Virus record (IMG/VR): IMGVR_UViG_2718218360_000002
DNA: 64,000 nucleotides
Source: a virus
Taxonomy: Duplodnaviria; Heunggongvirae; Uroviricota; Caudoviricetes
Direction: 5' to 3' (one strand)
The first letter of the stretch is position 1. The number at the start of each line of letters is the position of its first letter. Of the stretch, positions 57,001-60,000 are shown in pieces. The position numbers were made by a program.

Positions 57001-60000
57001 TAACCAGGATGGTTTATCGAATGATAATATCCAGATTGGCCTTCAATATATAGAACATATTGAACGTACACTTAATCATGGTAGTTTGACAAGCCGTGAA
57101 GTTACAGTACTGCGTGAAATTGAGATGCTCGAAAATATGGATTTGCTTTCTAACTACCAGTTAGAGGAGTTGTTAGATAAAATTGAAGTATGTGCATTTA
57201 ATGTGGAGCATGCACAATTGCAAGTGCCAGAGAGCTTACGAACATGCCCTGTTACATTATGTGAACCAGAAGATGGGGTATTTATGAGGAATTCAATGAA
57301 TTCAAATGTTTGTATGTTGTATGATAAAATGGCATTAATACATCTTGTTAAAACAAGGGCGGCTCATCCTTTGAGCAGGGAATCAATCGCAGTTTCAATG
57401 ATTGTAGGAAGAGATAATTGTGCTTTTGACCCTGACAGAGGTAACTTCGTTTTAAAAAATTAAGGTAGCAATGGCGGGTTAACTTTTCGTAAAATGAAAT
57501 TAATTCTCGGTACGGCATGTAAAACGCGGCACCTCGTATGCAAGAACGTACTGCGGTTGGTTGGTGAACTTTCGATAGTGCTAGTCTTGGATGATTTCCA
57601 GCCGTTACCGATTTTACGTGCTAATTAGTGAACAAACCACTCGTCAGCAGACTTCCAGGTATCTTTCAGAGTCTCCTGAACAAAAGTTTTAGCTGAATCT
57701 TTATCGGCGGTGCGCGTAACAGAAAGGCCATCGTTGCTGGTGGCTTTTACGATCACCTCTACATCGTCATAACGTTTACTGATGCGTCGGGTTAATTCTT
57801 CCTTTAACGCATCCACAGCACCGTTTGGCATTTTAGTGATTTTTTCTTTAGCGATACAGATCTCAACACGCATAACACCCTCCTGTAACTGTAGTTATGT
57901 ACAGGTGTTATTTTTATCTGTATGGATAACCAGTGTCAATTCCTGATATTGTTTATGGGGCATCAATGGGGCATGTATGGGACACTTTTTATCGGCGAAA
58001 TTCGTCGAAGTTCATCGACATGGTAAACGAATCATCTATCCAACCCTTGAAAAACGGCGCTCCTGGACGATCTTCGTCGATTTTTAAAAATGTTGCGTCA
58101 CGCGCGTAACGTGACAGGGTTAATATCACAAAGCAACGCCACTTCACCAATTGTGTAAAGCGCCATCGTCTCACCCTTGCTCGCGAGGTCCCGGTTTAAC
58201 TTTAGACGCAGTTTTGCGAACCAGGTAGTTTTGCCCGTTTTTTGTGCATTTATAGGGTGATTTTATTTTTGCCAGGCGATTTTGAGTGATCGTACTCACG
58301 AATTCTCATTTTTCTGCAAGAGTTCAAAGAAAGTTAAACGCAGGCAATGTATGTTACGCGTTTTAAAGGGATGTGTGGTTTGCGGGTATGTACGATTTTA
58401 ATCTGGTGTTGCTGCTGCTTCAGCAGATGTGCGTTTTTTTAGTCATTGCGTGGTTAATGAGTAAAACGCCATTATTCATACCGTTAATGCAGGTCACGGT
58501 TCGTCTGCCGCATAAATTTCTCTGCTACATCGTCTTTTCCATCTTCTGCATCATGGGCACCTGGTTTGGGTTGCACATTGACGATTCTATTGCCAATACC
58601 CGTGCGATAGGCGCGGTAATGGGCGGCTTACTCGGCGGTCCGGTCGTCGGTGGGCTGGTTGGCCTGACCGGCGGGTTACATCGATATTCGATGGGGGGCA
58701 TGACCGCGCTAAGTTGCATGATCTCGACCATCGTTGAAGGATTGCTCGGCGGCCTGGTACACAGCATCCTGATCCGTCGCGGGCGCACTGATAAAGTCTT
58801 TAACCCCATTACCGCTGGTGCCGTCACGTTCGTCGCTGAAATGGTGCAAATGCTGATCATCCTGGCGATCGCCCGACCTTATGAAGATGCGGTGCGTCTG
58901 GTGAGTAATATTGCTGCGCCAATGATGGTCACCAATACCGTCGGCGCGGCGCTGTTTATGCGTATATTGCTCGATAAACGCGCGATGTTTGAAAAATACA
59001 CTTCGGCTTTTTCTGCCACTGCGCTGAAAGTGGCAGCCTCGACGGAAGGCATTTTGCGCCAGGGGTTTAACGAAGTGAACAGCATGAAAGTGGCTCAGGT
59101 GCTGTATCTGGAGCTGGATATTGGTGCAGTCGCGATTACCGATCGAGAGAAATTGCTGGCCTTTACCGGAATTGGTGACGACCACCATTTACCCGGCAAA
59201 CCGATTTCTTCAACTTATACTTTAAAAGCGATTGAAACCGGTGAAGTGGTCTACGCTGATGGCAACGAAGTACCTTATCGTTGCTCTTTGCATCCGCAAT
59301 GCAAACTGGGGTCGACGCTGGTAATTCCGTTGCGTGGTGAAAATCAGCGGGTGATGGGCACCATCAAATTGTATGAAGCCAAAAACCGTTTATTTAGTTC
59401 AATCAACCGCACGCTGGGCGAGGGGATTGCGCAACTGCTTTCGGCGCAGATCCTCGCCGGGCAATATGAGCGGCAAAAAGCGATGCTCACCCAGTCAGAG
59501 ATCAAACTGCTTCACGCCCAGGTGAACCCCCATTTTTTGTTTAATGCGCTTAACACCATTAAAGCGGTGATCCGTCGCGACAGCGAACAGGCCAGCCAGC
59601 TGGTGCAGTATCTTTCCACTTTTTTCCGCAAAAACTTAAAGCGGCCTTCGGAGTTTGTTACTCTCGCCGACGAAATTGAACATGTGAATGCTTATCTGCA
59701 AATTGAAAAGGCGCGCTTCCAGTCGCGGTTGCAGGTCAACATTGCTATTCCGCAAGAATTATCCCAGCAGCAATTGCCCGCGTTTACCCTGCAACCGATA
59801 GTGGAAAACGCCATTAAACATGGGACATCACAACTGCTGGATACAGGGCGAGTGGCAATCAGCGTCCGACGTGAGGGGCAACATTTGATGCTGGAGATCG
59901 AAGACAATGCCGGTTTGTATCAACCGGTAACCAATGCCAGTGGGCTGGGGATGAATCTGGTGGATAAGCGTTTACGTGAACGGTTTGGCGATGACTATGG

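Follow-up and report, generated by a model that had tools for sequence, protein, structure and literature searches.

The 70-bp feature near the right end of the stretch of DNA analysed here (64,000 nucleotides in full, hereafter the window) is attR, the right attachment site of the lambdoid prophage found at the mlrA (yehV) site of Escherichia coli O157:H7, a site normally occupied by the Stx1 phage (Sp15/CP-933V type). The prophage that ends at this attR is a recombinant of two prophages: the left ~26-28 kb, including int and xis, derives from an ompW-site prophage and the right ~19-21 kb from the mlrA-site prophage, with the change of parent falling within a portal-gene stretch, about 2-3 kb long, that both prophages have in common. 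Because of this recombinant origin, the two ends of the prophage come from two different integration sites. The best explanation, and in our judgement probably the correct one, is that the window holds one junction of a prophage-mediated inversion, with attR at mlrA lying on the recombinant prophage. Splitting of mlrA by a prophage is already a published feature of O157:H7, and this core finding, together with its tie to weak curli and biofilm, is textbook for this serotype and adds nothing new on that point.

The coordinates of the features are collected in Table 1. Read on the minus strand, the mlrA stub runs ATG GCG CTT ... CGC GCG TGA and encodes MALYTIGEVALLCDINPVTLRA followed by a stop, all 22 residues being identical to residues 1-22 of E. 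coli B MlrA. When the flank was aligned to the uninterrupted yehW-mlrA-btsS locus, window positions 58099-58498 were 99.25% identical over 400 nt, and the first homologous base was exactly 58099, so that a coincidental match of 22 codons, one of the cases that would have undone the preliminary description, is excluded. The breakpoint is inside mlrA at a conserved att core and the flanking chromosome is collinear with the uninterrupted locus. The attB of E. coli B, the attR of the window and the attL of strain FRIK2455, set side by side, share a core of 21 bp. At codon 23, TGG has become TGA, to which the att core contributes the TG and the phage DNA the A. The identical stub is labelled as a pseudogene in RefSeq for FRIK2455 and Z1504, and 474 of the 5,426 complete E. 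coli genomes compared share this junction of phage DNA with mlrA. Site-specific integration at the core, within codons 16-23, leaves the mlrA promoter and the first 22 codons beside btsS, and the reading frame of the split gene then closes at the TGA; the promoter is presumably still within the intact mlrA-btsS intergenic region and now drives only the 22-codon stub.

Table 1. Positions of the prophage, attachment-site and flanking features in the 64,000-nucleotide window.
Feature	Position	Strand	Basis or remark
Sp9-type degenerate effector island	1..11080	.	annotation and 100% identity match
ompW 3' fragment, product ending in WYMDIDTTAKYKSGVTTVKDSVRLDPWVFMFSAGYRF and a stop	11081..11201	+	marks the ompW-type left attachment site
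Left half of the chimera	11202..36829	+	from the ompW-site prophage; no stx genes
Lambda-type integrase of the ompW-site prophage	11245..12375	-	Pfam Arm-DNA-bind_1 and Phage_integrase
Excisionase gene	~12354-12602
Crossover interval, inside the portal gene	36830..39691	+	informative sites
Right half of the chimera	39692..58098	+	from the mlrA-site Stx1-type prophage
Two NleG-family type III effector genes	56267..57463	+	right end of the prophage
dinI-like gene	57625..57873	-	NCBIfam PRK10597, E = 3e-19; annotation
Phage arm of attR	57874-58098
mlrA 5' stub	58098..58166	-	codons 1-22, then TGA at the boundary of att core and phage DNA
att core, attR copy, 21 bp, CACGCGCGTAACGTGACAGGG	58099..58119	.	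mlrA codons 16-22 plus TG
mlrA-btsS intergenic region, intact	58167..58387	.	collinear with and ~99% identical to the uninterrupted locus
btsS (yehU)	58388..60073	+	RefSeq annotation of the identical FRIK2455 sequence
btsR	60070-60789		followed by yehS; RefSeq annotation of the identical FRIK2455 sequence
ISEc8 in yehR	61651..64000	-	extends past the window end

The remainder of mlrA, as well as yohO and yehW, is absent from the whole 64 kb by blastn and tblastn. The preliminary description had placed the right junction of a prophage in mlrA and had found the other part of the gene missing at the integrase end (about 11 kb), and both observations hold. A weak continuation of the tblastn match into the phage DNA, over MlrA residues 23-53 (49% identity over 59 aa, a figure that includes the 22 identical residues and the stop) was set aside as not meaningful. 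No second copy of the 21-bp core occurs in the window even at 3 mismatches, and no attL with the distal mlrA part is found on the same element; the left boundary is instead the ompW fragment.

Intact MlrA is composed of the Pfam domains MerR_1 (residues 4-72), MlrA_helical (81-155) and MlrA_C (162-238). The cut after residue 22 severs the MerR-type DNA-binding helix-turn-helix domain and leaves none of the complete architecture, and hence this copy is unable to give a functional MlrA. In the literature, loss of MlrA ends the RpoS-dependent activation of csgD and leads to low curli and low biofilm. Prophage insertion in mlrA is reported in 96-98% of the O157:H7 strains covered by published surveys. 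Work on O157:H7 has shown that the insertion limits csgD-dependent curli and biofilm formation (PMC5931665, PMC3874044). The reduction of curli and biofilm anticipated in the preliminary description is backed, as an expectation for the source strain, by this published work.

At the left end, the host-gene fragment beside the integrase is the 3' part of ompW; the equivalent fragment in strain Sakai stands at the end of Sp9 and is annotated as 'outer membrane protein W, C-terminal part'. The window lacks an attL with a cognate mlrA-site tyrosine integrase beside it: compared with the integrase at the mlrA site of FRIK2455, its own shows no significant similarity (BLASTP E = 2.8), and the same integrase directly follows an intact ompW in many other genomes. 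The degenerate island to the left carries an integrase remnant, ISEc8 (2690-5131), nleG (6368-7015), espM1 (7199-7789), IS630 and IS3 remnants and another NleG-family (DUF1076) gene. Window positions 1-13000 are 100% identical to 280 genomes, in which the region upstream is Sp9 with nleA.

These results bear on the earlier proposal that at least two mobile elements are stacked at mlrA, with the missing 3' part of the gene upstream of the window. The proposal agrees with the abutment of the integrase end on a degenerate effector island and with the absence of the mlrA 3' part from the window, but the host-gene fragment at that end is from ompW and not from mlrA, the integrase is of the ompW-site type, and the island and window 1-13000 together are the Sp9/ompW locus of the 280 genomes, ~1.1 Mb away from mlrA. 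The tandem arrangement, a Sp9 island with a second prophage, is found at ompW and not at mlrA. Moreover, the prophage changes parent part-way along its length. We therefore regard stacking at mlrA as very improbable, and the composite site of the preliminary description gives way to an ompW-type left end adjoining a Sp9-type nleG/espM1 island.

The left half carries int, xis, exo, the immunity and replication genes, Q, a DNA methylase, a nanS-p-like esterase and the lysis, terminase and capsid genes, with a perC region at ~31.7-32.0 kb as sequence unique to the ompW-site prophage, and differs at only 7 positions from the ompW-site prophage of strain 7409; window 1-37500 has only 3 differences from the ompW-site prophage region of FRIK2455. 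The right half comprises the portal end, the head-tail and tail genes, an ant/arc module at 47.3-48.9 kb that is unique to the mlrA-site prophage, J, lom, the tail fibre, nleG and dinI. Its two NleG-family genes are at 56267-56740 (N-terminally truncated) and 56822-57463 (Pfam T3SS_NleG, E = 7e-47 and 2e-43), and the dinI-like gene is the final phage gene ahead of attR. Over window 39109-58934 the identity to the mlrA prophage of FRIK2455 with its flanking DNA is 100.000%, and this 100% identity continues through btsSR-yehS-yehR::ISEc8 to position 64000. From Q to the lysis genes the sequence is of the ompW-site prophage, and a tblastn search of the window with Stx1A and Stx1B of FRIK2455 gave no match; the stx1A and stx1B genes that an Stx1-converting prophage carries downstream of the Q antiterminator gene are thus absent.

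Informative sites change parent cleanly within 36,830-39,691, and from 39691 onward every one of them is of the mlrA-prophage type. The interval in which the switch falls depends on the parent chosen, being 39,205-39,691 with the strain 7409 ompW-site prophage and 36,830-38,378 with that of FRIK2455. Over window ~32-47 kb the parents share 97-100% identity, so the switch lies in a tract of shared near-identity, as a rearrangement between them would have it, and the crossover interval contains a 162-nt tandem array. Window 36800-39720 has no exact match in any complete genome searched, and an exact look-up of three ORFs from portal fragments that are peculiar to the window gave no recorded sequence. 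The chimera represented by window 29000-50000 is found in 0 of 5,426 complete RefSeq E. coli genomes; the best match to it, with 99.4% identity and 93% coverage, is a different chimera in strain HB6.

An assembly artefact would account for these observations if the attR junction were real and the join of the ompW-site and mlrA-site prophages were a mis-join, or a minority-variant consensus, in a multi-copy portal repeat. The true chromosome would then hold an unbroken mlrA prophage like that of FRIK2455, and the distal part of mlrA would lie ~42 kb left of attR. Besides the absence of the chimera from the complete genomes, eight small indel events that occur only in the window cluster at 37551-38771, mostly as homopolymer or 2-nt deletions that break the portal ORF. 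This cluster lies in or right beside the switch interval and the remaining ~60 kb is nearly error-free, which suggests a poor consensus exactly at the join of the two prophages. The portal region, which includes the 162-nt array, is found at a median of 6 sites per genome and at as many as 34, and there is a precedent in strain PA20, where a prophage inversion predicted by the assembly was refuted by experiment (PMC5931665). However, the multi-copy ISEc8 copies in the window are error-free, and repeats here are therefore not generally mis-polished. The orientation of the join also fits a viable inversion between mutually inverted prophages, O157:H7 rearrangements of such a kind are frequent and have been verified experimentally (PMC8743559), and this ompW-site prophage borders further rearrangement junctions in other genomes. 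On this evidence we consider an artefact possible but less likely, and lean towards a genuine chimera that has become fixed in the source strain; it would represent an inversion across the terminus, ~1.1-1.2 Mb in size, that had not been sequenced before.

The geometry of the two loci is that expected of parents of an inversion. In Sakai, F1273 and FRIK2455 a distance of 1.08-1.19 Mb separates the ompW/Sp9 locus from the mlrA-btsS locus, the two loci that flank the prophage in the window. In FRIK2455 the parent prophages are on opposite strands with portal genes ~1.18 Mb apart (1.862 Mb on the plus strand and 3.041 Mb on the minus strand), in Sakai Sp9/ompW is on the plus strand and Sp15 on the minus strand, and F1273 and F1 E4 have the same inverted arrangement of both loci. 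Since the parents are inverted and so far apart in FRIK2455, one junction of a prophage-mediated inversion is the best reading of the window. Genomes of the strain 113 type, in which both window ends are on the plus strand, were considered as a contradiction of this geometry, but their records are numbered on the opposite strand, and given the inverted parental arrangement in all of Sakai, F1273, F1 E4 and FRIK2455 the objection was rejected; from their coordinates, these genomes appear to carry a further ~0.4-Mb inversion that ends in the ompW-site prophage. The inversion is read from one junction, that within the 64-kb window, and an inverted duplication would yield an identical single junction.

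Under the inversion reading, homologous recombination by RecA or phage Red between two inverted prophages on opposite sides of the replication terminus, the ompW-site and the mlrA-site prophage, would invert about 1.1-1.2 Mb of chromosome, and the window would be one of the two junctions produced. The reciprocal junction, ~1 Mb away, would carry the distal 221 mlrA codons, the IS1203-truncated mlrA-type integrase and stx1. The unrearranged mlrA prophage, with attL, distal mlrA and stx1a, is seen in FRIK2455 and Sakai. In O157:H7, inversions bounded by prophages are frequent around the terminus, appear even in cultures grown from one colony and have been verified experimentally (PMC8743559); the att sites of chimeric Sp4/Sp14 prophages are mis-paired, and these prophages do not circularise (PMC5931665). 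A chimera with an ompW-type attL, an mlrA-type attR and an ompW-type Int would likewise be incapable of excision. Two analogous events were observed among the genomes compared: in HB6 this left half of the ompW-site prophage is fused to a right half from a prophage of the potB site, and the ompW-site prophage of FRIK2455 terminates at ydfJ.

With mismatched ends no excision is predicted, and mlrA would therefore not be restorable by that route; if the inversion is true, the gene would be locked in its split state for good, with the distal part moved about 1 Mb from its promoter. The stx1 genes would be stranded in a second, non-excisable chimeric prophage and the mobilisation of the Stx1 phage would be altered. 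Such a structure could account, in one lineage of O157:H7, for a curli-negative phenotype that is stable and for a change in the mobility of the Stx1 phage. More generally, the two ends of one O157:H7 prophage cannot safely be assigned to one integration event, and a hybrid prophage with mismatched att sites is the mark either of a rearrangement on the megabase scale or of a mis-assembly. A rearrangement of this type would escape both junction PCR and local annotation.

Among known systems, the window resembles Sp15 of Sakai and CP-933V of EDL933, both inserted in yehV (mlrA), in its site and orientation, with btsS (yehU) followed by the mlrA 5' stub and then by dinI and the tail genes. The last ~580 bp of its phage DNA (57521-58098) are 99.6% identical to the right end of a Sakai-type Sp15, whereas the late region of Sakai is a different module; the window and FRIK2455 have an HK97-type head, an ant/arc insert and two nleG genes before dinI. 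Unlike Sp15 and CP-933V, the version in the window is without stx1, the mlrA-type integrase and attL. The mlrA Stx1a prophage of FRIK2455 (NZ_CP015843.2, 3,021,8xx-3,063,2xx) is 100% identical over window 39109-58098 and shares the yehR::ISEc8 flank; FRIK2455, however, keeps the whole prophage with attL, the IS1203-truncated integrase, stx1a and the distal mlrA part, while in the window all that lies left of the portal gene has been replaced by the ompW-site prophage. The prophage-mediated rearrangements of O157:H7 described by Fitzgerald et al. 2021 (PMC8743559) and the Sp4/Sp14 case of PA20 (PMC5931665) are similar in their recombination across the terminus, but the pair of ompW-site and mlrA-site prophages is named in neither, and the text of PMC8743559 makes no mention of mlrA, yehV, ompW, Sp10 or Sp15. 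The chimera of strain HB6 (NZ_CP040305.1) has the same ompW-site left half up to the head and tail genes (99.4% identity), and it continues into the right half and flank of a potB-site prophage with nleL, espN and espK, whereas those of the window belong to the mlrA-site prophage.

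The junction was assessed against the uninterrupted yehW-yohO-mlrA-btsS locus of E. coli B (L001). Translation of the minus-strand stub gives MALYTIGEVALLCDINPVTLRA followed by a stop, and the same 22 residues open the E. coli B MlrA, as the preliminary description had read them. By blastn, this locus is 99.25% identical to window 58099-58498, the match beginning exactly at 58099. When the 501 bases at 57880-58380 were compared with 5,426 complete E. coli genomes, in most the match began only at query base 220 (window 58099), where an intact mlrA is annotated, and 474 matched the entire query including the phage side. 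Since the 22 residues are identical and the break at 58099 recurs across the survey, the mlrA/phage junction is genuine and its position exact, and a coincidental 22-codon match is ruled out by a wide margin.

When attB (the E. coli B site) was compared with the window junction and with the left-hand junction that this prophage type forms in O157:H7 strain FRIK2455, a common core emerged. It comprises mlrA codons 16-22 and the opening TG of codon 23, which changes from TGG to TGA with the A supplied by phage DNA. A second copy of the core was not found in the window with three mismatches allowed. The MerR-type helix-turn-helix domain of MlrA spans residues 4-72 (Pfam), hence the cut falls inside the DNA-binding domain. 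At the FRIK2455 left junction, a RefSeq-annotated 233-aa "mlrA" begins with 5 phage-derived codons and continues with MlrA positions 16-243; because this fragment is annotated as an ordinary MlrA CDS, annotation-based screens would miss the disruption.

Features of the window and of the comparison loci
Feature	Coordinates	Strand	Remarks
OmpW C-terminus fragment	11081-11201		directly left of integrase (also locus L010 20699-20815)
Integrase	11245-12375	minus	lambda-type
Tandem array in portal gene C-terminal part	38947-39539		162 nt (54 aa), 3.7 copies, 97% match
arc/ant (antirepressor) module	47288-48883		between tail genes L and K
NleG-family effector genes	56267-57463		two, one N-terminally truncated; between tail-fibre genes and dinI
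mlrA 5' stub	58098-58166	minus	ATG GCG CTT TAC ACA ATT GGT GAA GTG GCG TTG CTT TGT GAT ATT AAC CCT GTC ACG TTA CGC GCG TGA
att core CACGCGCGTAACGTGACAGGG	58099-58119		21 bp; common to attB, window junction and FRIK2455 left junction
Primer A (yehVRJfor)	58125-58144		published right-junction PCR primer
ISEc8, Sp9 island	2690-5131		
ISEc8 in yehR	61651-64000		
Distal mlrA fragment, FRIK2455	L005 42277-42978		RefSeq CDS name 'HTH-type transcriptional regulator MlrA'

Judged by its sequence, the window is E. coli O157:H7 DNA. In strain Sakai, prophage Sp15 (Stx1) occupies the same mlrA site in the same orientation, and the site was occupied in 53 of 55 O157:H7 strains (PMC3874044). Excision has been reported to restore native mlrA, and run-off transcription to allow expression of distal mlrA fragments (PMC5931665, citing Uhlich 2013 and 2016, Shaikh & Tarr 2003 and Brown 2001). 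The reduced curli and biofilm formation expected from the split is thus a supported expectation, already present in the literature.

The other part of mlrA had been reported missing at 10.9-11.3 kb, and indeed no further piece of mlrA, yohO or yehW was found anywhere in the 64-kb window. The int-proximal end abuts a degenerate effector island, as described; this is an Sp9-type island with an ompW fragment. Across window 1-13000 there is 100% identity to 280 genomes in which the island (ISEc8, nleG, espM1, IS remnants) is followed by the ompW fragment and int. The fragment shares 98% identity with genomes where intact ompW directly precedes this integrase and about 84% with the native 3' end that ompW has in prophage-free genomes; the copy adjoining int is a phage-borne variant of that end. 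The integrase has no significant similarity to that of the FRIK2455 mlrA-site prophage. In Sakai, the same island closes Sp9 with "outer membrane protein W, C-terminal part", then yciE and the trp genes, without the second, ompW-site prophage that in the window stands in tandem with the island. The ompW fragment, the dissimilar integrase and the Sp9 neighbourhood therefore identify the left end as an ompW-site junction that does not belong to the mlrA site. The earlier proposal that at least two elements are stacked at mlrA was rejected on this ground and is highly improbable; it should be replaced by an ompW-site/mlrA-site hybrid prophage, which marks either the junction of an inversion or a fault in the assembly.

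The right part of the FRIK2455 mlrA Stx1a prophage, together with btsS, matches window 39109-58934 at 100.000% identity. The identity extends across btsR and yehS and takes in an ISEc8 insertion in yehR common to only six complete genomes (FRIK2455, FRIK2533, FRIK2069, ECP19-2498, 2-6-2 and BB24-1). Window 1-37500 differs from the ompW-site regions of FRIK2455 and strain 7409 at 3 and 7 positions, respectively. In multiple alignments with candidate parents, every informative site up to 36,830 was of ompW-prophage type and every one from 39,691 onward of mlrA-prophage type, placing the switch between 39,205 and 39,691 with 7409 as parent, or between 36,830 and 38,378 with FRIK2455, within the portal gene. 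The Q-to-lysis region is that of the ompW-site prophage, and no stx genes were found in the window. On these sequence comparisons, the window prophage is a chimera of ompW-site and mlrA-site prophages.

The portal tandem array has one copy more in the window and the ompW-site prophages than in the FRIK2455 mlrA prophage. The arc/ant module lies in the mlrA-prophage-derived right half and is absent from the compared ompW-site prophages. The nleG genes are unlisted in the annotated Sakai-type Sp15 right end, to which homology begins only at 57521; the mlrA-site prophage of this lineage therefore carries a different late/cargo module. Primer E (yehVRJrev), the partner of primer A, is present neither in the window nor in L005, the FRIK2455 mlrA-prophage locus, with up to 2 mismatches allowed, so this occupied site would probably test negative in the standard 702-bp right-junction assay. 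The two ISEc8 copies, 59 kb apart, are 100% identical and in the same orientation; recombination between them would delete the whole chimeric prophage, btsSR and yehS.

The chimera is absent from all 5,426 complete RefSeq genomes searched, and the best match to window 36800-39720 is at most 99.7%. Eight small indel events cluster at 37551-38771, within or next to the switch interval; they occur in no compared prophage and leave the portal gene split among several ORFs. Contractions of a homopolymer by one base and deletions of 2 nt make up most of them. The eight include AAA to AA, G6 to G5, CCC to CC, two deletions of 2 nt and one insertion, and are probably consensus errors; the other ~60 kb is almost error-free, with perfect ISEc8 copies. 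The cluster points to poor consensus at the join, compatible with a mis-join, a minority structural variant or simply bad polishing where the sequence is multi-copy. In PA20, one prophage inversion predicted from the assembly was subsequently disproved (PMC5931665). An assembly artefact is considered the less likely origin of the chimera.

We regard a real rearrangement as the reasonably probable origin of the chimera. In K-12 map coordinates, dif (about 1.59 Mb) lies between ompW (about 1.31 Mb) and mlrA (about 2.21 Mb). The FRIK2455 parent prophages lie about 1.18 Mb apart and inverted, with the ompW-site prophage on the plus strand (ompW fragment at 1,835,358; portal gene 1,861,710-1,864,294) and the mlrA prophage on the minus strand (portal gene 3,039,929-3,042,352). 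F1273 and F1 E4 share this arrangement, as does Sakai (Sp9/ompW at 1.816 Mb on plus, Sp15 at 2.896-2.944 Mb on minus). Recombination between two such inverted repeats would invert the intervening segment, and the predicted order is that of the window: Sp9 island, ompW fragment, int and left half, right half with attR, mlrA 5' stub, btsS, btsR, yehS, yehR. Distal mlrA, an IS1203-truncated mlrA-type integrase and stx1a should then be found at the reciprocal junction, some 1 Mb away from attR, and would not be expected just upstream of the window. As an ompW-type attL and Int are paired with an mlrA-type attR, integrase-mediated excision would not occur and mlrA could not be rebuilt.

The same mismatched-att reasoning, backed by PCR, was applied to the chimeric Sp4/Sp14 prophages of PA20 (PMC5931665). 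The ompW-site prophage lies at rearrangement junctions in other strains too: in HB6 (L008), the left half is joined to a potB-site prophage with nleL, espN and espK, and in FRIK2455 (L011 15568-16851), the right end abuts truncated ydfJ, then ydfI, beyond which the mar and lsr genes follow in reverse order. Inversions bounded by prophages have been recorded around the terminus in different O157:H7 lineages, and they also appear within cultures grown from single colonies (PMC8743559).
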